Shown piece by piece: positions 1,702 to 10,462 of a stretch of DNA of 23,470 nt; position 1 is the first letter of the stretch, and every line of letters begins with the position of its first letter. A program made the position numbers and the translations under genes. The stretch is from positions 1 to 23,470 of the forward strand of contig CAYPQA010000024.1 in assembly GCA_964412725.1 (NCBI GenBank). The letters run 5' to 3'. The stretch comes from an uncultured Eubacteriales bacterium. GTDB taxonomy: Bacteria > Bacillota > Clostridia > Lachnospirales > CAYPQA01. The notes under the pieces are model-generated. The model saw nothing but the letters and a program-made list of their open reading frames with translations. It was not told the origin of the DNA and did not search any database.

Positions 1702-2679
1702 CTATTCAGAGTTCAATTTAAACTGCCTGTATATACGTTCCTTGACCTTTTCGAGAAAATGCTCGGGGCCCAGAACCTTTAGAACGGGGCCGAAACTCAA
1801 AATGCGTATCAAAAGCTCGGTTTCGTCTTGGGTATCATAAAATATGCGGCAGATGAAAAAGTTGTTTTCTTCATCATACTCTGTTTGTTTTTCCCAAGAT
1901 GCAAATTGAAGCATGCAACGTTCAAGCGCGTTACGCTCCTTTGAGATTTGTAAAACTATAGGCTCTGATGAAAAGTTGTTGAAATAACGTTCCGGCTTGA
2001 AATCCGAGGACACATTTTCGCCGGAGATACAAACATCAATAATACGGGACAAATTTAGCGTTATGCCCTTATGTCTTAGATTTTGTAGCGTAACACATAG
2101 CAAGCGGAATTTGTCGTCACGGCTTGAATAGCTTATCTTGTATGGAAACACAGTGTGCTTTGCTGGCGTACGGGAGCTGGTCTCGTAGTTTACATAAATA
2201 ACCTTTCTATCGTTGCAGGCTTGAAGTATGGTTCTGAAATTTCTTATGTATTGCTCATTGTCGTATGGATCGCCGTCGGACGCTGTATCAAAAATATGAA
2301 AATCCTCTTGAAGAAACAACGGCTCGACATCGGCCAGTTCATTATTCAGATATTTAACGTCGTCTTCGGAAAGAAATAGCAGTATTCGCTTATCGGTCAA
2401 CAGCGACTTGATCCAAGACTTTTCCAAAAGCGTCATGGGTCTTTCTGTCTCGGAATTAAGCTTTGAATAGAATTTGCCGTCCTCTTTCTTGTCGAGCAGG
2501 TGCCATTCGTCCGAGAAAAGCTTGGGCAGCATATGAAAGGCACTGTCATAGAACCCATCGGTGCAGACGAGTTTTTCTATATCTGCCCTGTGCATGCCCG
2601 CTTTTGACATATTCAATATCCTTGCCACAACTGTATAATAACAGCCGTAAACCTCCGAAAATAGTAAATCAGATACCAT
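1702..2679 (-). CDS. WYL-domain transcriptional regulator (wHTH-WYL-WCX architecture, PafB/PafC-like)
   Basis: WYL-like core DRKVIYVNYETSSRTPAKHTVFPYKISYSSRDDKFRLLCVT. C-terminal extension ELLIRILSFGPVLKVLGPEHFLEKV matches the WCX/C-terminal motif of WYL regulators. 325 aa is typical for PafB/C, BrxR and CapW. Overlaps the upstream WYL gene by 11 nt (operon). Confidence 0.75.
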   Translation of the reverse strand: MVSDLLFSEVYGCYYTVVARILNMSKAGMHRADIEKLVCTDGFYDSAFHMLPKLFSDEWHLLDKKEDGKFYSKLNSETERPMTLLEKSWIKSLLTDKRILLFLSEDDVKYLNNELADVEPLFLQEDFHIFDTASDGDPYDNEQYIRNFRTILQACNDRKVIYVNYETSSRTPAKHTVFPYKISYSSRDDKFRLLCVTLQNLRHKGITLNLSRIIDVCISGENVSSDFKPERYFNNFSSEPIVLQISKERNALERCMLQFASWEKQTEYDEENNFFICRIFYDTQDETELLIRILSFGPVLKVLGPEHFLEKVKERIYRQFKLNSE

Positions 2680-3898
2680 ATAATTCCTTCATCCTTTTAA
2701 TATCGTTATAAAAGCGGTTAATAACCGTGCTGTCCGTGCCTTCAAGCTGAATTATTCGCCCCATAAAAGTCTTTATCCATGGCGAAATATCGTTAAGGTC
2801 AAACAATTCCTTTGTGTAGAGGAAGATATTCTTGTCCAAATGCACAAGCTCGCCGCCATGTCCCTCTCTTATTATCCTTTCTATTATATACCCCTCTTTT
2901 TCCTCATCTATAAAAAGCTTCATACACACAAGCTGATTCCTATTTCTGCCTCCGAAACAAACTCCCCATACTTTGTCTATATTCTTTTCAAGATTTTCTC
3001 TATAAAGCGGAACCTCGTCGCAAACATCACGCAGTTTTAATGTCATTATATGGTCTAAGCGGTAACTGAAATATCTTCTGGTTTCTGTCTTATACACACA
3101 AACGTAACGACGTCCTGTTGCCGTGCTTACAAAAATTTTCAAAGGTATACCAATGATACTACCCAACTTTTGTGTTTTTTCGCAGTAGTTCTCAAATTCT
3201 ACAGACATATTTTGCCTTATCGCAGTAAGCAGTTGCAAAAGAATGCCGCTCTCTAAGGTGTGAGCCACATAATAATGCTTAAACGCAAAGGTATCGTTCG
3301 AAGTCTGTTCATTATCCATAATATGTCTTCCGATTTCACCAAACGGTGCGGCTCCCTGAAAAAACTTTACAGCCTCTATTAATCCCGGAATCTTTTCCGA
3401 CAAACGGCTGAAATATAAATCCGAAAGACTATAGAGAAGTGTTTTGCCGTTTTTCTTAGCCGTCAAAAGCCCTGCCTTAAGATATTCCGTACACTTTAAC
3501 CTGACCGTCTGCACATCAAACACCTGTTCGCTTTGCTCGGATACAGCGTTCGTGAGCTGTTCGACAGACAATTCCAAGCCTTTTATGAGAACGTCCATAA
3601 TATAGAAATGCAGCATAATATCATTGGCTGTAAAAGCCTTAGACTTCCAAGCCGAATAAAGCGGGTTCACACGGATTTTGGCGCAATCCATTGAAATAAA
3701 AGATGTCTTCCCAGACTTGGTATAGGACCACTTCATATACTCGCCTAAATAACTCTCAATTCGTCGTTTTTCATTGTCGTATGTACGCGGTGATTTATGC
3801 TTAAAATCATTGCGTGACTTAAAGCCATAAATATAAAAATCGCGCATATATACCCTTATCTTATCAAAATTTCTAATTAACTCGTTAAATTCCCTCAT
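2669..3898 (-). CDS. WYL-domain transcriptional regulator, second paralogue, with a roughly 130-aa N-terminal extension
   Basis: wHTH-like segment VQTVRLKCTEYLKAGLLTAKKNGKTLLYSLSDLY, WYL-like core GRRYVCVYKTETRRYFSYRLDHIMTLKL, C-terminal PWIKTFMGRIIQLEG. The tool start is GTG 3937; the first ATG (3898, MREFNELIRN) has a weak GGTGAGAG upstream. Start is uncertain within 3898-3937. Confidence 0.7.
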   Translation of the reverse strand: MREFNELIRNFDKIRVYMRDFYIYGFKSRNDFKHKSPRTYDNEKRRIESYLGEYMKWSYTKSGKTSFISMDCAKIRVNPLYSAWKSKAFTANDIMLHFYIMDVLIKGLELSVEQLTNAVSEQSEQVFDVQTVRLKCTEYLKAGLLTAKKNGKTLLYSLSDLYFSRLSEKIPGLIEAVKFFQGAAPFGEIGRHIMDNEQTSNDTFAFKHYYVAHTLESGILLQLLTAIRQNMSVEFENYCEKTQKLGSIIGIPLKIFVSTATGRRYVCVYKTETRRYFSYRLDHIMTLKLRDVCDEVPLYRENLEKNIDKVWGVCFGGRNRNQLVCMKLFIDEEKEGYIIERIIREGHGGELVHLDKNIFLYTKELFDLNDISPWIKTFMGRIIQLEGTDSTVINRFYNDIKRMKELYGI

Positions 3899-4011
3899 TC
3901 TCTCACCAACTTCGCAACTTTTTTTAAATGATAACACTGCAAATTAATGGTAATATCTTAGCATAGCAAACAAACATTAACAATTAAAATTGAATGAAAG
4001 GATGTGATTAT

Positions 4012-5244
4012 ATGTTTGTTATTGCTAACGAAGATACAAGAGTGCCGATTAAGATTTGGCTTAAGGATGAAAAGAGTTTGGAAGAGAGCTGTATTGAACA
4101 AGCATATAATCTATCCAAGCTGCCGTTTTTGCATAAGTGGGTCGCATTGATGCCCGATACGCATACAGGCATGGGCATGCCAATCGGCGGCGTTATAGCC
4201 ACAACCGACGTTATCATCCCGAATGCGGTTGGCGTTGACATAGGCTGTGGTATGGCTTTCGTGAGCACAAACATCCCTGTTTCCGAAATTAAGGATATTC
4301 AAACCGGAAATGGTATGTTTATAAATGCAATGATAGGCGACATACTCCGCAACATTCCGCTTGGTTTCAGGCACCACAAAAAACCGCAACCTTGTCATAC
4401 GCTTGACGATGCATTTGAAGAACTCGACAAGTACGAGGAAAACGGAGAGCTTTTGGGACAGCTTGAAGCTGGCTATTTCCAAGTTGGAACCTTGGGCGGC
4501 GGCAACCACTTTATAGAACTACAGCAGGATGATGAGGGTTATCTTGCAGTTATGATACACTCGGGGAGCCGTAACTTTGGAAAACAAATTTGTGACGCTT
4601 TTCATAGAACCGCAAGAGAATTAAACATAAAATGGCACAGTGCAGTACCGCCAGAATACAGGCTTGCTTTTCTTCCTGTCGATTCAAAAGAAGGTATTCA
4701 GTACATAAATTGGATGAATCTTGCATTGAACTTTGCGGCTGAAAACCGTCTTAGAATGATTCTTGCTGTAAAAGCCATTCTTGAAAAATGGATCGGCAAG
4801 TACACCGATTTAAGCATTGAGTATGATATGGAAATAAACTGTCACCATAATTATGCGGCCATAGAAAACCATTACAACCAAAACGTATGGGTACACCGCA
4901 AGGGTGCAACAAGGGCAGAATCCGGTGAACTGGCTGTGATACCCGGTGCTATGGGTTCTTACAGCTATGTTGTGGAAGGTCTCGGCAACGAAATGAGTTT
5001 TAAAAGCTCATCTCATGGCGCAGGACGCAGATATTCGAGAAAAGGCGCAATGGCCGCCTTCACCACAGAACAGGTTATGGTCGACTTAAACAAGCAAGGT
5101 GTTGTCTTAGGCAAGTACAATAAAAACGATGTTGCCGAGGAAAGCCGCTTTGCTTACAAAGACATTGACGAAGTTATGGAAAACCAAAAGGATTTGGTTA
5201 AGCCCATAAAGAGATTAAAGACATTAGGTGTAGTAAAAGGATAA
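4012..5244 (+). CDS. rtcB: RtcB RNA 3'-phosphate/2',3'-cyclic phosphate ligase
   Basis: Hallmark RtcB motifs: DTHTGMGMPIGG, HSGSRNFG, CHHNYAAIE, SHGAGRRYSRK. The ATG at 4012 follows RBS AAGGATG at the canonical spacing. The upstream ATG 3994 lacks an RBS. Confidence 0.95.
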   Translation: MFVIANEDTRVPIKIWLKDEKSLEESCIEQAYNLSKLPFLHKWVALMPDTHTGMGMPIGGVIATTDVIIPNAVGVDIGCGMAFVSTNIPVSEIKDIQTGNGMFINAMIGDILRNIPLGFRHHKKPQPCHTLDDAFEELDKYEENGELLGQLEAGYFQVGTLGGGNHFIELQQDDEGYLAVMIHSGSRNFGKQICDAFHRTARELNIKWHSAVPPEYRLAFLPVDSKEGIQYINWMNLALNFAAENRLRMILAVKAILEKWIGKYTDLSIEYDMEINCHHNYAAIENHYNQNVWVHRKGATRAESGELAVIPGAMGSYSYVVEGLGNEMSFKSSSHGAGRRYSRKGAMAAFTTEQVMVDLNKQGVVLGKYNKNDVAEESRFAYKDIDEVMENQKDLVKPIKRLKTLGVVKG

Positions 5245-5264
5245 AAAGAAGGGCTTTTGTCCCT

Positions 5265-5465
5265 CACGGCGCAAGCGGCTCTGCCTACTTGTGTTCCGTC
5301 AATTTAGCGTCTTATGACGCCTTGCATTAAAATTCATGGGTTCAAATCCCATACTCCTTTAAGGAGTTAGCTAAGTGGTAACGCATTTATTTTAAGAATT
5401 AAAAAACGTGCGGCATTCAATGAATCCGCAACACGAATTCGGGCTTGCGGCGAGGCGGATATCGT
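5265..5465 (+). ncRNA. candidate tRNA-mimic (Y-RNA/YrlA-like, circularly permuted tRNA-like) element downstream of rtcB; boundaries are approximate
   Basis: T-arm ATGGG-TTCAAAT-CCCAT (5336-5352) carries the tRNA T-loop consensus. Next comes ACTCCTT (5353-5359), one nt, then its complement AAGGAGT (5361-5367), which forms a closed acceptor-like stem. A D-arm-like GTTA-GCTAAGTGG-TAAC (5366-5382) with the GG dinucleotide follows. Flanking segments CGCAAGC (5270-5276) and GCTTGCG (5443-5449) can pair as an enclosing stem. There is no strong terminator between the rtcB stop and this element, so co-transcription is plausible. Confidence 0.3.
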
Positions 5466-5579
5466 AAAATCAAGCCACCTGTGAAGAAAGCAATTGCTAA
5501 ATATATGCGATGATTTTACTCAAGCTTTGCCCCCCACGAATTTGTGGATTGTAACTACTCATGATTGGAGATGAAAGAT

Positions 5580-6674
5580 ATGAAAATGATAATAAATGAG
5601 AATGAGAGAGGGTTTCTTTTTAAGAACGGTAAGTTTTTGCGTATGATAATGCCGGGTAAGCATAATGTTTTTCCGTTTTTAGGGGACTCGTGCATCAAGA
5701 CACAGATAGGCAGCAGGGTTAACGTAACCAATGTTGAGATTAATGTTCTTTTAACGGACAAGAATTTTTCGGACAGTGTCACAAAGATTGAAGTGCCTGA
5801 TTTTCAATTTGCGTTCCACTCGGAAGACGGACGTATCGTTGAGGTATTGAAATCCGGTACATATTATTTTTGGAATGTCTTTCATAGGCATACATTCCAG
5901 TTTGTTGACATAAGCGAGCCACAGGTAAACTTGCCCAAGGAGATGATGGCACATGTGCCAATCGGCATGTACACAAGAATTGAAGTTCCGGAAGGCGAAA
6001 CGGGATTATTATTCTTCGATGGCAAATTCCGTGAGCAGTTAAGCAGCGGCAGTTATTACTTCTGGAATTATTCTACAAAGGTTACTTGCCAGCTTGTTGA
6101 CACGCGCACCCAACAGCTTGACGTAAATAGTCAGGAGATACTGACAGCTGACAAGGTTTCATTAAGGCTGAATTTCGTCTGCACCTACAAAATTACCGAC
6201 GCTGTGAGCATAAACAACTCGCTTAAAGACTACAAGAATCAGATTTACGTTATAACACAGCTTGCACTTAGGGAATATGTTGGAAGATTGAAATTTGACG
6301 AATTGCTTGAGCAAAAGGACAGCATCGCACGCATTGTGCTCCAAAACCTAAGAGAAAAGCAGTCGGAATTATACGTTGAATTTACGGATGCAGGATTGAA
6401 GGACATAATCTTGCCCGGAGAGATTAGAGAAATTATGAACACAGTTCTCATAGCCGAGAAGAACGCACAAGCCAATGTAATCTCGCGCCGCGAGGAGGTT
6501 GCGTCAACAAGGAGCCTTTTGAACACAGCCAAGCTTATGGACGAAAACACAACGCTATACAAGCTTAAAGAGCTTGAGTTCATAGAAAAGATTTGTGAAA
6601 AGGTTGGAAACATATCCGTAGGAAACGGGAATCTTTTTGAGCAACTAAGCAAGGTTTTTGCACTTACGTCTTGA
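5580..6674 (+). CDS. SPFH/band-7 (stomatin/flotillin/HflK-like) domain protein with no predicted TM segment and a duplicated N-terminal SPFH segment
   Basis: SPFH-type start ENERGFLFKNGKFLRMIMPGKHNVFPFLG...LTDKN. A second copy follows: PEGETGLLFFDGKFREQLSSGSYYFW...LTADKVSLRLNFVCTYKITDA. A coiled-coil-like C-terminal half follows that. The ATG at 5580 has GGAG 9 nt upstream. The tool start at 5565 is a TTG overlapping the RBS. Confidence 0.8.
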   Translation: MKMIINENERGFLFKNGKFLRMIMPGKHNVFPFLGDSCIKTQIGSRVNVTNVEINVLLTDKNFSDSVTKIEVPDFQFAFHSEDGRIVEVLKSGTYYFWNVFHRHTFQFVDISEPQVNLPKEMMAHVPIGMYTRIEVPEGETGLLFFDGKFREQLSSGSYYFWNYSTKVTCQLVDTRTQQLDVNSQEILTADKVSLRLNFVCTYKITDAVSINNSLKDYKNQIYVITQLALREYVGRLKFDELLEQKDSIARIVLQNLREKQSELYVEFTDAGLKDIILPGEIREIMNTVLIAEKNAQANVISRREEVASTRSLLNTAKLMDENTTLYKLKELEFIEKICEKVGNISVGNGNLFEQLSKVFALTS

Positions 6675-6724
6675 CAAAACGGCAATATACCTCCATAATA
6701 TATCTAAACGATATATTATGGAGG
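6671..6724 (+). promoter_or_regulatory. padR promoter with a perfect 15-bp inverted-repeat operator
   Basis: TTGACA (6671-6676), about 18-19 nt, then ATAATAT (6695-6701). The operator is CCTCCATAATATATC (6690-6704), TAAAC, GATATATTATGGAGG (6710-6724). It overlaps the -10 box and the padR RBS GGAGG. Confidence 0.5.
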
Positions 6725-6731
6725 TGTTTTT

Positions 6732-7280
6732 ATGTTGGATTATATTATTCTCGGTATGGTACTTGATAAAGAATTAACCGGCTACGAAATAAAAAAGTAC
6801 ATAGAGAACGGAATAGGAGTTTTCTATAAAGCGAGTTATGGTAGCCTGTACCCCGCATTGAAGAAGTTAACGGTTTCGGGAAACCTAGAGATGAACGAAG
6901 AGCCTAACGGGGGAAGGAAAAAGAATTTCTATAAAATAACGGATGAAGGTAGACAAATCTTTATGGAGTGGCTTGAATCTCCGCTGAATGTATTAGACGG
7001 TACAAATACGCTCTTAGCAAAGGTTTATTTTTTCGACAAACTTTCACCCGACGTTCGAGAACGACAATTGCTGGAGCTTCAAATGAATAATGAAAATTAC
7101 TTGCGCAAGCTACAATCCTTGGAAAAAGAATTTGACAAGATGGAAAACAAGGATTGTTTTTATCACAAGCTCTCCACGCTATATTACGGCATCTGCGTTA
7201 CAGCCGAAACGATAAGATGGTGTCAGCATATCAGAAATGGAAATCCATTGACAGACTTAATCCACAAGGGGGAAAAATGA
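6732..7280 (+). CDS. PadR-family transcriptional regulator
   Basis: N-terminal winged helix typical of PadR: ILGMVLDKELTGYEIKKYIE...YGSLYPALKKL. C-terminal coiled-coil extension. The stop overlaps the start of the downstream MBL gene. Confidence 0.85.
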   Translation: MLDYIILGMVLDKELTGYEIKKYIENGIGVFYKASYGSLYPALKKLTVSGNLEMNEEPNGGRKKNFYKITDEGRQIFMEWLESPLNVLDGTNTLLAKVYFFDKLSPDVRERQLLELQMNNENYLRKLQSLEKEFDKMENKDCFYHKLSTLYYGICVTAETIRWCQHIRNGNPLTDLIHKGEK

Positions 7281-8073: not shown

Positions 8074-8178
8074 CGAGTGCTTCGCCACTTTAAGTGCGAC
8101 TTATTGAATTGAGTGCTTCGCCACTTTAAGCGCGACTTATTGAATTAAGTGCTTCGCCACTTTAAGCGCGACTTATGA
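8074..8178 (+). ncRNA. toxI: type III toxin-antitoxin RNA antitoxin (ToxI/AntiQ-like): 2.9 tandem 36-nt direct repeats
   Basis: R1 8074-8109 gagtgcttcgccactttaagtgcgacttattgaatt; R2 8110-8145 is identical except for t>c; R3 8146-8178 is partial. It is immediately followed by an intrinsic terminator and then a ToxN-family gene, the canonical ToxIN layout. The repeat contains CTTTAAGTGC, and GAATT where ToxI has GAAATTC, which resembles Pectobacterium ToxI as I recall it. Confidence 0.7.
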
Positions 8179-8180
8179 TA

Positions 8181-8208
8181 GAGGTGGACTGGTTCCACCT
8201 CTTTTTTT
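8181..8208 (+). terminator. intrinsic terminator between the repeat RNA and the toxin gene
   Basis: GAGGTGGA (8181-8188), loop CTGGT, TCCACCTC (8194-8201), TTTTTTT (8202-8208). This matches the attenuating terminator that sets the toxI:toxN ratio in ToxIN loci. Confidence 0.7.
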
Positions 8209-8222
8209 GGGAGAAAAATATT

Positions 8223-8735
8223 ATGATTGATTTTTACGACGTAGATAAGAAATACATAGAGTTTCTGCAGAATTCAGAAACTGAAGTTAGAGGATTTACT
8301 CGCGTGCCAAATATGGAATACGGAGTTAGAATGCAAAAATTTCTGTGCGGTATTGTACTTAAGATTAATGAAATAAACTACTATGTTCCTGTGACTTCAA
8401 AAAAAGAAAGATTGCCGGATTCAGTACTTGTTTTAATACCCACAGATAAAATCGACCAAATAAAGGGGTCTTTAAAATTCAACTATATGATACCTGTGCC
8501 TGATTTTGCAATAACTGTTCGTAAAATAAACTCAGAACCTGATTTGTCAAGAAGGCGATTTTTAAACGGTCAATTGCTATACTGTCAGAGCATAGAAACG
8601 ATTATTTTGAACCAAGCAAGGCGTACATATAATAAATGGTTTGAAGGCAAAGGCAGTGAACGTTTTTACTATAATTGTTGTGACTTCAAGCTTTTAGAGG
8701 AGAAATACAAAGAGTTTATCGAGACTAACAAATAA
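8223..8735 (+). CDS. toxN: ToxN/AbiQ-family type III TA endoribonuclease toxin
   Basis: 170 aa. N-terminal IDFYDVDKKYIEFLQ matches ToxN KFYTISSKYIEYLK. GIVLKINEINYYVPVTS matches GIVLEIQGHKYLAPLTS. LKFNYMIPV and C-terminal CDFKLLEEKYKEF match CDFAVLEEKYRDF. The ATG at 8223 has GGGAG 9 nt upstream. The tool start 8175 runs through the terminator hairpin and is rejected. Confidence 0.85.
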   Translation: MIDFYDVDKKYIEFLQNSETEVRGFTRVPNMEYGVRMQKFLCGIVLKINEINYYVPVTSKKERLPDSVLVLIPTDKIDQIKGSLKFNYMIPVPDFAITVRKINSEPDLSRRRFLNGQLLYCQSIETIILNQARRTYNKWFEGKGSERFYYNCCDFKLLEEKYKEFIETNK

Positions 8736-8930: not shown

Positions 8931-9704
8931 GTGGTAAATGTAGTTATATATGCGGATGTAATCTTTGCTATAAACTTTTTAATGGACTTGATTATTCTAT
9001 GGAGCGTTTCATATTTTGCGAAAAAACATCTAAGAGGCAAGCTTTACCTTGTGCTTGCCGCAGCACTTATGGCGTTGTCCTCTTGTTTCGGATTTTTCAC
9101 GGCCGGTATTTTGAAAATTCTTTTGTCGGTTGTAACGGTTTTTGCGGGTGTTTTTACAGCGTTCAAGATAAATAACATTTTCCGACTGCTTATTGTGTCC
9201 GCATTGATGTATATAGCCGCATTTTTCATAGGCGGTCTTACATTATTTCTTTTTCTGAATGTCAAGTCCTTTTCAATTTTACTATTGGTTTCATCTGCCT
9301 CCCTTTTCTACATAAGCTTTAGTGCCGTTAAATATATCTTTCGCCACTTACCCAAACAAAAGATTTTAAACGTCAGTATAAGCTTTCAGGAAAGGGAGGT
9401 TATTTTGCCTATGCTGGTTGACACAGGCAACTCACTCTCTGAGCCTGTCAGCGGCTTGCCTGTTTTCATTGCGGAGGCTTCAAGACTTGAGAGCATTTTG
9501 AGCGACGAAACTGTTTTGAGGCCTGTTGTGTTTAATACAATCTCGGGCGCGGATACGTGCATGTGTTTTAAGCCCGACCGCGTCTTGGTTGACGGTTTGC
9601 CCATTAATGAAATTTATATAGCTTTGCAAAATATAAAATTTTCAGAGAATAACGTCTATTGCGGCCTTATTAATCCAAAGGCTTTGCCCGACGGATTGTT
9701 TTAG
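8931..9704 (+). CDS. spoIIGA: sporulation sigma-E processing aspartic peptidase SpoIIGA
   Basis: Multi-TM N-terminal half (VIYADVIFAINFLMDLIILW...) and a C-terminal protease domain with LVDTGN (DTG aspartyl-protease motif). Lies immediately upstream of sigE as in Bacillus and Clostridium. GTG start, uncertain by a few codons. Confidence 0.85.
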   Translation: MVNVVIYADVIFAINFLMDLIILWSVSYFAKKHLRGKLYLVLAAALMALSSCFGFFTAGILKILLSVVTVFAGVFTAFKINNIFRLLIVSALMYIAAFFIGGLTLFLFLNVKSFSILLLVSSASLFYISFSAVKYIFRHLPKQKILNVSISFQEREVILPMLVDTGNSLSEPVSGLPVFIAEASRLESILSDETVLRPVVFNTISGADTCMCFKPDRVLVDGLPINEIYIALQNIKFSENNVYCGLINPKALPDGLF

Positions 9705-9724
9705 AGGCTTCTTAAGGAGGATGT

Positions 9725-10462
9725 ATGATAGAGCGATTGTTTAAACAGATTATAAATAAATTTATGACGGAAATTCATAATAAGTACTCTCATAAAGAAT
9801 CAGAGGACGAAGTTTTTTATATAAGCGGTAGTGAGGTGTTGCCATTGCCGCTTAACGCGGACGAGGAGGCTGAGCTTTTGGAACAGCTTGGCGGCGAAAA
9901 TGATGAGAATGTACGTGCAAAGCTTATCGAGCGAAACCTGCGTCTTGTTGTATACATCGCACGAAAATTTGAAAACACGGGCGTTAATATTGAAGATTTA
10001 ATTTCTATCGGAACAATAGGGCTGATAAAATCCATTAACACATTTAAAACGGATAAGAAAATTAAGCTTGCAACCTATGCGTCCAGATGTATTGAAAACG
10101 AGATTTTAATGTATTTGAGAAGGAATACAAAAACAAAAACGGAGGTTTCGATTGATGAGCCGTTGAATGTGGACTGGGAGGGCAACGAGCTTTTGCTTTC
10201 GGATATTCTTGGTACAGACGTGGATATTATATATAGAAATGTCGAGGACGAGGTTGACAGAAGTCTTTTAAATCAAGCCCTAAGCCGTCTTTCAAAACGC
10301 GAAAAACGCATTGTGGAGCTTCGGTTCGGTATAAACTGTGACGGCGAGGAAAAAACCCAAAAGGAGGTTGCCGACATCTTGGGCATTTCACAATCCTACA
10401 TATCAAGGCTCGAAAAAAAGATTATCGGCAGGCTTAAAAAAGAAATATCGGGTATGTTTTGA
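9725..10462 (+). CDS. sigE: RNA polymerase sporulation sigma factor SigE (pro-sigma-E)
   Basis: Pro-sequence with [14 protein letters not shown]. Regions 2-4 are near-identical to B. subtilis SigE: [92 protein letters not shown]. Confidence 0.95.

Follow-up and report, generated by a model that had tools for sequence, protein, structure and literature searches.

A module widely conserved in Clostridia, combining an RNA ligase, a soluble scaffold-type protein, a structured RNA and a pair of regulators, is described here from a 23,470-nt stretch of DNA of an uncultured Eubacteriales bacterium (GenBank contig CAYPQA010000024.1), hereafter the window. The WYL regulator pair (WYLA and WYLB), a promoter motif, the RNA ligase gene rtcB, a structured RNA and the gene of a soluble SPFH/Band-7 protein are found as a set in hundreds of Bacillota genomes, arranged in either of two gene orders. 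Sequence comparison supports the four protein genes and the RNA as one conserved, functionally linked module. The overall picture, to which a probability of about 0.6 is given, is that of an RNA-repair ribonucleoprotein module of RtcB, SPFH and tRNA-like RNA that would be controlled by a dedicated pair of winged helix-turn-helix (wHTH)-WYL-WCX regulators; each mechanistic step is held less firmly. The locus is laid out as follows, with coordinates as positions in the window.

1702-2679, minus strand: WYLB, second gene of the pair, a predicted regulator of 325 aa with wHTH, three-helix linker, WYL and WCX parts
2669-3898, minus strand: WYLA, a predicted WYL regulator of 409 aa with an extra, very conserved N-terminal region (open reading frame, ORF, as listed 2669-3937)
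4012-5244, plus strand: rtcB, RNA ligase gene, divergent from the WYL pair (the ORF could also begin at 3994)
5245-5564: non-coding gap of 320 nt between rtcB and SPFH
5580-6674, plus strand: SPFH, gene of a soluble SPFH/Band-7 protein of 364 aa (ORF as listed 5565-6674)
6687-6727, plus strand: 18-bp hairpin and T run, a terminator-like site and the probable end of the operon

The reading frames of WYLB and WYLA share 11 nt. Homologue alignments place the probable starts at ATG codons, at 3898 for WYLA (not the GTG at 3937), at 4012 for rtcB and at 5580 for SPFH. An earlier, sequence-only reading of this DNA had noticed an overlapping WYL pair, a divergent rtcB, a permuted tRNA-like element and an SPFH protein devoid of transmembrane (TM) segments, and all of these were found where it had placed them.

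The association of these parts was assessed from two sides. Relatives of the window proteins were located by tblastn, and an alignment of SPFH homologues matching at least 589 genomes supplied 80 species-level loci; the reciprocal set, anchored on WYLA, comprised 80 metagenome loci, 29 of them evaluable. The related loci compared carry L-numbers. Hallmarks of the RNA lie within 700 nt 5' of SPFH in 73/76 SPFH-anchored loci, and the WYL pair adjoins the module in 51 of the 60 that have enough upstream sequence (85%). Among the 50 SPFH-anchored loci with both flanks, the WYL pair is present in 42, RtcB in 36 and both in 33. The gene order of the window, with the WYL pair divergent from rtcB, then the gap and SPFH, occurs in 13 loci. 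A second order, WYLA, WYLB, gap, SPFH and usually then RtcB, is found in 38. Seen from WYLA, the neighbourhood contains WYLB in 29/29 loci, SPFH in 22/29, RtcB in 22/29, and either RtcB or SPFH in 26/29. The sequence-only reading had held that its proposal would fall if the WYL genes mostly stood beside unrelated genes, and these counts did not refute it. The exceptions are partial modules with unrelated neighbours, consisting of the WYL pair and RtcB or of the WYL pair alone. The rest of the flanking genes vary from locus to locus, most being of metabolic or housekeeping function.

The whole gap between rtcB and SPFH is filled by a multi-domain structured RNA, in which one to four permuted tRNA-like modules stand between a 5' and a 3' domain; compensatory changes support all of these parts. 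The RNA is under strong structural selection. Its length is 300-550 nt in relatives, and the window has a short version extending from about 5246 to 5550. The following elements are recognized in it.

5246-5333, plus strand: 5' domain of the RNA, with hairpin P2 (5248-5254/5259-5265), helix P3 (5269-5278/5284-5294) and a hairpin at 5307-5320
5334-5385, plus strand: permuted tRNA-like module, with T-arm (5336-5352), closed acceptor hairpin (5353-5367) and D-arm (5370-5384)
5410-5429, plus strand: hairpin GCGGCATTC-AAT-GAATCCGC, read by eye, at the spot where relatives have further tRNA-like arms
5429-5550, plus strand: 3' domain of the RNA, with nested helices A (5432-5436/5542-5546), B (5443-5456/5524-5535) and C (5464-5472/5511-5519)

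The 3' domain provides the strongest statistics. In its alignment (A7), 89.9% of the helix cells are paired, compared with 64.5% in shuffles, and 110 two-sided changes are counted against 37; none of 500 shuffles matches the observed value on all five measures. The junction strands GGATATCG (5457-5464) and CTCAA (5519-5523) are conserved and appear in the RNA as the invariant GGAUACCG and CUCAA. A covariance model of this domain (R2), built with the window left out of the seed, finds the window at 5429-5550 with 46.8 bits (E=1.6e-10), the runner-up reaching 9 bits. Across L001-L080, all 55 matches of R2 lie directly 5' of SPFH, including those in 38 loci of the other gene order, which were outside the seed.

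Pairing is likewise maintained in the other domains. A conserved GGYGC pairs with GURU in helix P3. In the 5' domain, RNAalifold on 22 sequences gave 11 of 16 pairs that keep pairing despite changes on both sides; at column pair 59-84 there are 17 UA and 5 CG, the subgroup of the window having switched from U-A to C-G. An outer helix, P1, was seen by eye in relatives. Among 25 tRNA-like modules from related loci, 92.6% of helix cells are paired, against 70.6% in shuffles. Two-sided changes affect 85 cells, compared with 26 for shuffles and no more than 13 for slid controls. The corresponding covariance model (R1), whose seed includes the window, has its sole window match at 5334-5385, with 59 bits. 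In 1 Mb of related loci, 61 of its 64 matches lie just 5' of SPFH, one to three per RNA, and the remaining three lie at real tRNA genes.

The module resembles a tRNA in part. ARAGORN predicted no tRNA gene in the window, the tRNA-like element included, and a scan of the window with Rfam 15 returned no family at threshold, ROOL, GOLLD, OLE, HEARO and raiA being among the families covered. In a permissive Rfam scan, YrlA (RF02553) scored 27.2 bits against a gathering score of 69 and was well aligned only at the T-arm, acceptor and D-arm. With the Rfam tRNA model, the alignment to the window element is confined to the T-arm (14 bits), and a cloverleaf in the normal order, with an anticodon arm, was not found there. 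In the RNA region of 10 related loci, Rfam gave only weak matches to the tRNA model, inside the module arrays. The sequence-only reading was right about the presence and the permuted order of a tRNA mimic but understated its extent, as the mimic is only one module of a far larger RNA supported by covariation.

Tandem arrangements are found in relatives. Three T-arm/acceptor-hairpin/D-arm modules follow each other in L004 (7339-7515), L014 (7265-7442) and L005 (7561-7748), with a fourth T-arm in L004 and L014. The Rfam tRNA model spans the D-arm of one module and the T-arm of the next in L004 (7429-7491, 40 bits) and in L005, so that two alternative tRNA-like registers are possible. Pseudo-tRNAs that ARAGORN can call are present in the RNA region of L010, L013, L020, L029 and L054 and probably correspond to the published 'b7a-tRNA'. 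Other foldings were considered and rejected. Pairing of GGATACCG with a 5' CGGTAT motif to close the RNA was set aside; covariation puts GGATACCG in the junction between helices B and C, and GGYGC with GURU locally. Near the 3' end, a local CCCCGC/GCGUGG hairpin gave way to the long-range helices A and B, with which the alignment agrees better. The minimum-free-energy fold of the whole gap was not used as a model.

Ahead of rtcB, a short region contains the promoter and a candidate site for the regulators.

3911-3934, plus strand: conserved promoter-proximal motif TTCGCAACTTTTTTTAAATGATAA, candidate WYL operator, including a weak -35 ATGATA (3928-3933)
3948-3956, plus strand: extended -10 TGGTAATAT of the rtcB-RNA-SPFH operon promoter, 17 nt past the -35

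Judged from its sequence, this promoter is of the sigma-70 type. It is too weak for a consensus promoter scan, which is compatible with dependence on an activator. Equivalent TGnTAnAAT boxes are present in related loci, where the spacing to the motif is unchanged. The motif has the consensus (G)TTCGCA(A/G)CTTTTTTT, then (A/C)(A/C)(A/G)TGA(T/A), with the short form TTCGCAnCTTTTTTT...TGAT. Of 163 sources (1.75 Mb), 103 contain the pattern T[TC]CGCAnnTTTTTT, with 110 occurrences in all, where chance would yield about 0.1 by our own estimate. In either gene order, the motif invariably precedes whichever gene or RNA opens the module, 80-100 nt ahead of rtcB in divergent loci and about 35 nt ahead of the -10 box preceding the RNA in co-directional ones. 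It is also kept in L036 and L067, loci with no adjacent WYL genes. The motif is therefore a candidate, and a likely one, for the WYL operator, and a single asymmetric site beside a poor -35 is expected of an activator acting as a heterodimer. In co-directional loci (L021, L024, L035, L042, L047, L054 and others), the motif forms the 3' arm of an inverted repeat, AAAAGCTGCGAACTT...AAGTTCGCAGCTTTTTTT, just past the WYLB stop. This repeat resembles an intrinsic terminator of the WYL genes, so that terminator and operator seem to overlap.

In the window, rtcB, the RNA and SPFH form one transcription unit, with an activator-type promoter in front and a gap free of terminators. As the sequence-only reading had claimed, the terminator scan found no plus-strand terminator-like site at 5245-5564, between rtcB and the SPFH start. 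The plus-strand sites of the scanned region are one at 6615 and the strong hairpin at 6687-6727, past the SPFH stop.

The WYL fold is barely detected in the two regulators by sequence profiles, and structure prediction was therefore needed. WYLB has a sub-threshold match to Pfam WYL (E=4e-4), a Pfam scan of the window WYLA gave no match, and profile searches of both against the PDB were not significant (E about 0.5-0.9). The profile-profile comparison of WYLA with WYLB was marginal (E=0.004). AlphaFold2 structures were predicted from alignments of 25 homologues each, with a predicted local distance difference test (pLDDT) value of 84 for WYLB and of 69 for WYLA, whose N-terminus is badly modelled. 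In Foldseek searches of the PDB, every significant match of both models was a wHTH-WYL-WCX protein (DriD, PafBC, BrxR, CapW or the Cas13d-associated WYL1), with E values from 1e-10 to 1e-5 over most of the chain; the best matches, at 1e-10 to 1e-7, cover about 320-360 columns. The best matches of WYLB were PafBC (9fnd) and DriD (8tpk/8tp8), with E about 1e-10; those of WYLA were DriD, PafBC, BrxR and CapW, with E from 7e-11 to 1e-5. TM-scores were low (0.2-0.45) because the domain arrangement differs in the models. A PADLOC model of Cas-associated WYL proteins also matches WYLB (7.5e-16). On these models, WYLA and WYLB are predicted to be wHTH-WYL-WCX regulators, the layout that had been proposed from the sequence.

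More than 1000 homologues of WYLA were found, many with PF13280. In their alignment, about 100 residues at the N-terminus, from MxEFxELIKNF, are highly conserved. Basic residues are conserved in the WYL domains, TGRRY/YRLD in WYLA and KFR/LSRI in WYLB. They would fit a nucleic-acid ligand and leave its identity undefined. By analogy with PafBC, the two proteins probably act jointly as a heterodimer. The 11-nt gene overlap, a gene order fixed in all loci and the asymmetric motif are consistent with such a pairing. PafBC is a heterodimer that is activated by single-stranded DNA (ssDNA) and acts at the promoter, where one HTH reads the promoter motif and the other contacts sigma; in 2025 it was stated to be the sole heterodimeric WYL regulator reported (PMC11804915). 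CapW and DriD bind ssDNA, according to the abstracts of the respective papers.

The rtcB product matches PF01139 over its full length (E=5.5e-113), and its translation contains the RtcB motifs DIGCGM, GGGNHF, HSGSR, HHNY and SSHGAGR. It is 70-82% identical to RtcB of loci sharing the gene order of the window. The RtcB encoded 3' of SPFH in the second gene order is only about 29% identical to it, yet is a genuine RtcB. The existence of two RtcB clades in the two gene orders indicates that RtcB was recruited to the same partners at least twice. Domains of RtcR, RtcA and Ro60/TROVE were found in none of the scanned ORFs of the window. The absence of RtcR, Rsr and RtcA noticed by the sequence-only reading therefore held, and the module stands in place of the RtcR/RtcA/Ro60 wiring.

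The SPFH protein matches Band_7 (PF01145) with E=5.7e-30. Its maximum Kyte-Doolittle mean over 19 residues is 0.87, hence no TM segment is predicted, and it should be soluble. A membrane anchor or hairpin at the N-terminus, as in stomatin, HflK/C and flotillin, was not found, and the protein scores far under the cut-offs of the HflK equivalog models. Its N-terminal beta segment is indeed repeated, as had been noticed, although not as a duplication: internal-repeat z-scores (R2/R3 z=20, R1/R3 z=8.3) point to three copies. The protein has more than 7000 homologues; the closest among the matches listed are mostly about 364 aa long, several of them named 'slipin family protein' by NCBI. In L054, SPFH and RtcB are separated by an ORF of 203 aa (9194-9805) for which Pfam gave no match; judging from their spacing, L063 and L076 may have this insertion too. 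This ORF may encode a further accessory component.

Several other elements surround the module in the window. The perfect 18-bp hairpin at 6687-6727 sits between the SPFH stop and a PadR-family gene (6732-7280). Its 5' arm is overlapped by TTGACA-17-CATAAT (6671-6699), which is the best promoter-like site of the region, and the PadR ribosome-binding site falls within the 3' arm of the hairpin. The hairpin may be operon terminator and PadR operator at once. A type III toxin-antitoxin locus is present at 8075-8735, with 2.8 direct repeats of 36 nt (8075-8176) directly 5' of a ToxN/AbiQ endoribonuclease gene (8175-8735; Pfam ToxN_toxin 3e-34, PADLOC AbiQ 5e-28). On the minus strand, a RelB-family antitoxin gene (1320-1637) is found with no intact toxin partner, and a 56-aa ORF (928-1098), for which the Pfam search gave no match, resembles the C-terminal end of a PIN-domain protein. 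The region 928-1637 is probably a decayed toxin-antitoxin module. Further along, at 8931-10462, come spoIIGA (Peptidase_U4) and then a gene of the sigma-70 factor family that is probably sigE. The presence of spoIIGA-sigE indicates that the contig is chromosomal DNA of a spore-forming Firmicute and not a mobile element.

A mechanism can be proposed for the module. WYLA and WYLB would jointly bind the asymmetric site TTCGCAAC-T7 just 5' of the weak -35, probably as a PafBC-like heterodimer. Binding of a nucleic-acid-derived signal by their WYL domains would switch the operon on. The precedents of PafBC, DriD and CapW would suggest ssDNA as this signal; analogy with the CARF domain of RtcR would suggest the ends of damaged RNA. 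Like other SPFH proteins, that of the module would oligomerise into a large ring or cage, and it would bind the RNA encoded directly in front of its gene. The resulting particle could present or mimic the top half of a tRNA and thus assist or direct RtcB in resealing broken tRNA-like substrates, a role modelled on that proposed for Ro60 and Y RNA in rsr-yrlA-rtcBA operons.

Several observations weigh against this proposal. RtcB is absent within the flanks in 9 of the 42 loci having the WYL pair and SPFH. In L161 (4006-7573), the closest relative of the window regulators (WYLA 89% and WYLB 81% identical), the WYL pair is divergent from rtcB under the same promoter motif, but there is neither RNA nor SPFH, and a convergent gene of 1212 aa comes directly after rtcB. 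Such partial modules indicate that the parts can work apart. The motif lies upstream of the -35, whereas the PafBC site is at -26, and the activation mechanism may differ. The WYL heterodimer, its ligand, activation as opposed to repression, and binding of the RNA by SPFH are points that we infer by analogy. The RNA of the window is a reduced one, with no P1, no anticodon-like hairpin, no helix D and no CCCAU/CCGG subdomain in the 3' part, and with a weakened D-stem (2/4 pairs retained); it might be decaying. The b7a-tRNA of related systems is stated to be without experimental validation in the account of Wang et al. 2018 (bioRxiv 10.1101/312249).

The reduced state of the RNA leads to a rather unlikely explanation in which it is a decaying remnant, the proteins alone being functional and the WYL pair controlling rtcB only, as in L161 with its WYL pair and RtcB. 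The gap of the window measures 320 nt, compared with 450-1070 nt in the same-order relatives compared, and besides the lost P1, helix D and anticodon-like hairpin, two D-stem pairs are broken. Against decay, 19 of the 20 pairs that could be evaluated in the 3' domain are intact in the window, as is every pair of P3 (counted on alignments A7 and A8), its T-arm and acceptor hairpin are perfect, and its 46.8 bits were scored against R2, a model built without it. The SPFH ORF is also intact and 72-77% identical to its closest relatives. An RNA that is functional could still serve in cis, as a leader (5' untranslated region) governing translation or stability of the SPFH mRNA, for instance by binding a protein or ligand, rather than as a trans-acting partner. 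Its constant location directly ahead of SPFH on the same strand would agree with this, as would the nearly constant distance from the GGATACCG junction to the SPFH start codon (127-146 nt in most loci) and the co-transcription of both in the window with no terminator between them. However, the outermost 3' helix stops about 20 nt short of the ribosome-binding site, and no terminator/antiterminator or pairing that sequesters this site is predicted. A length of 300-550 nt with one to four tandem tRNA-like modules is unlike known leaders, and YrlA, the nearest relative of the RNA, is a trans-acting partner of a protein (bioRxiv 10.1101/312249). A leader function is thus considered unlikely.

Other explanations concern the module as a whole. 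WYL regulators such as BrxR and CapW commonly control defence systems, WYLB matches Cas-associated WYL models, and the window also contains the ToxN/AbiQ locus and the RelB gene, so that an anti-phage or abortive-infection system might be envisaged, in which infection, sensed by the WYL pair, would be stopped through action of the SPFH-RNA particle and RtcB on RNA of the phage or the host. A counter-defence role had similarly been suggested from the toxin-antitoxin neighbours, and the comparison of loci gave it no support: the neighbours are not conserved between loci and are mostly metabolic or housekeeping genes, spoIIGA-sigE stands in the window, and no SPFH relative was found in the IMG/VR viral contigs. 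In addition, PADLOC models are unmatched by SPFH, RtcB and WYLA, and the known chemistry of RtcB is sealing, not cleavage. Defence is accordingly regarded as quite improbable. It is very improbable that the WYL pair stands beside rtcB and SPFH by chance and regulates only itself or distant genes. Loci L129, L131 and L149 do have the pair with no RtcB or SPFH nearby, but the pair adjoins the module in 85% of the SPFH-anchored loci with enough upstream sequence, and RtcB or SPFH is adjacent in 26/29 WYLA-anchored ones. This linkage holds in two gene orders, and the same motif always lies between regulators and operon.

A repair ribonucleoprotein module under WYL control, the reading preferred here, bears on what bacterial RtcB repairs and on why rtcB accompanies RNA-binding scaffolds and tRNA-like RNAs. 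The module is compact and common, an SPFH relative being found in at least 589 species-level genomes, many of them of gut and rumen Clostridia. Anaerocolumna xylanovorans DSM 12503, Robinsoniella peoriensis, [Clostridium] asparagiforme DSM 15981 and Clostridium sediminicola are carriers that can be cultivated. It offers convenient handles, namely a defined promoter motif for WYL sensing and a structured RNA with clear domain boundaries, and natural variants exist that have no RtcB, no RNA and SPFH, or one to four tRNA-like modules. If SPFH cages or scaffolds the RNA, a role of SPFH proteins away from membranes would emerge, with a link to Ro/Y RNA and vault biology. A bolder proposal can be put forward only tentatively, and we would expect it to fail rather than to hold. 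The RNA would belong to a class of non-coding RNA (ncRNA) not yet described, ornate, multi-domain and large (about 300-550 nt), with one to four mimics of the tRNA top half. Assembled with a ring or cage of soluble SPFH protein, it would form a particle resembling the vault or Ro/Y that works with RtcB, and WYLA/WYLB would be a second, Firmicute family of heterodimeric WYL regulators.

The eukaryotic vault is built by a cage-forming protein with an SPFH-like domain and is associated with small structured non-coding RNAs. The shoulder domain of MVP is discussed in the literature together with stomatin. The likeness to the module is confined to the SPFH domain; TEP1 and PARP partners are absent here, and a cage of the SPFH protein is, for the module, only a proposal. 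On the regulatory side, PafBC of mycobacteria and DriD of Caulobacter share the three-domain fold predicted in the WYLA and WYLB models, and pafB/pafC are likewise two adjacent paralogous genes with an asymmetric site near a poor -35. Sequence similarity to them is negligible, WYLA has its extra N-terminal region of about 100 residues, the candidate site is 5' of the -35 and not at -26, and the regulon apparently consists of a single operon.

The rsr-yrlA/yrlB-rtcBA operon with RtcR, known from Salmonella and others, also encodes RtcB together with an RNA-binding ring or scaffold protein and an ncRNA, whose tRNA-like domain is permuted in the same way (T-arm, closed acceptor, D-arm). The dedicated nucleic-acid-sensing regulator of this operon would, by analogy, have its counterpart in the WYL pair. 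Unlike this operon, the window has no Ro60, RtcA or CARF/sigma-54 activator RtcR; SPFH is found for Ro60, and two WYL proteins at a sigma-70-type promoter for RtcR. The RNA of the window differs from YrlA in having no recognisable Ro60-binding stem, and it scores only 27 bits against a gathering score of 69. In Pseudomonas aeruginosa, the SPFH gene PaFlo8 is embedded in the rtc RNA-repair locus, where RtcR and RtcA are present, as described in a 2026 paper (PMC13086221).

The closest known system is that of Burroughs and Aravind 2016, whose abstract reportedly proposes, as possible cofactors of RNA repair with a scaffolding role, SPFH/Band-7 modules and a novel tRNA-like molecule. As summarised in the preprint of Wang et al. 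2018, some bacteria encode RtcB beside a Band-7 protein and a predicted tRNA-like ncRNA, b7a-tRNA, and YrlA is occasionally the RNA beside Band-7 (bioRxiv 10.1101/312249). Together with PaFlo8, this prediction contradicts the claim of the sequence-only reading that an SPFH partner is unprecedented for Rtc systems. A full-text literature search, which did not cover Burroughs and Aravind 2016 itself, gave no further description of an RtcB-SPFH-tRNA-like RNA system, of a WYL link or of a larger RNA, and a 2017 survey of 224 RNA motifs by Weinberg mentions neither SPFH nor tRNA-like RNA. Both systems have RtcB and Band-7 genes flanking a tRNA-like ncRNA, the window SPFH lying 320 nt 3' of rtcB on the same strand. 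The YrlA-type RNA sometimes found beside Band-7 has its parallel in the YrlA-like permuted form of the window, and a scaffold or cofactor for RNA ligation is proposed in both cases. The core of ligase, scaffold and RNA was thus already predicted in 2016 as an RNA-repair system and is mostly not new; the large RNA, the paired WYL regulators and the operator may be the new parts. With respect to the system as known through the citing preprint, the tRNA-like part described here is one module of an RNA of 300-550 nt with conserved 5' and 3' domains.

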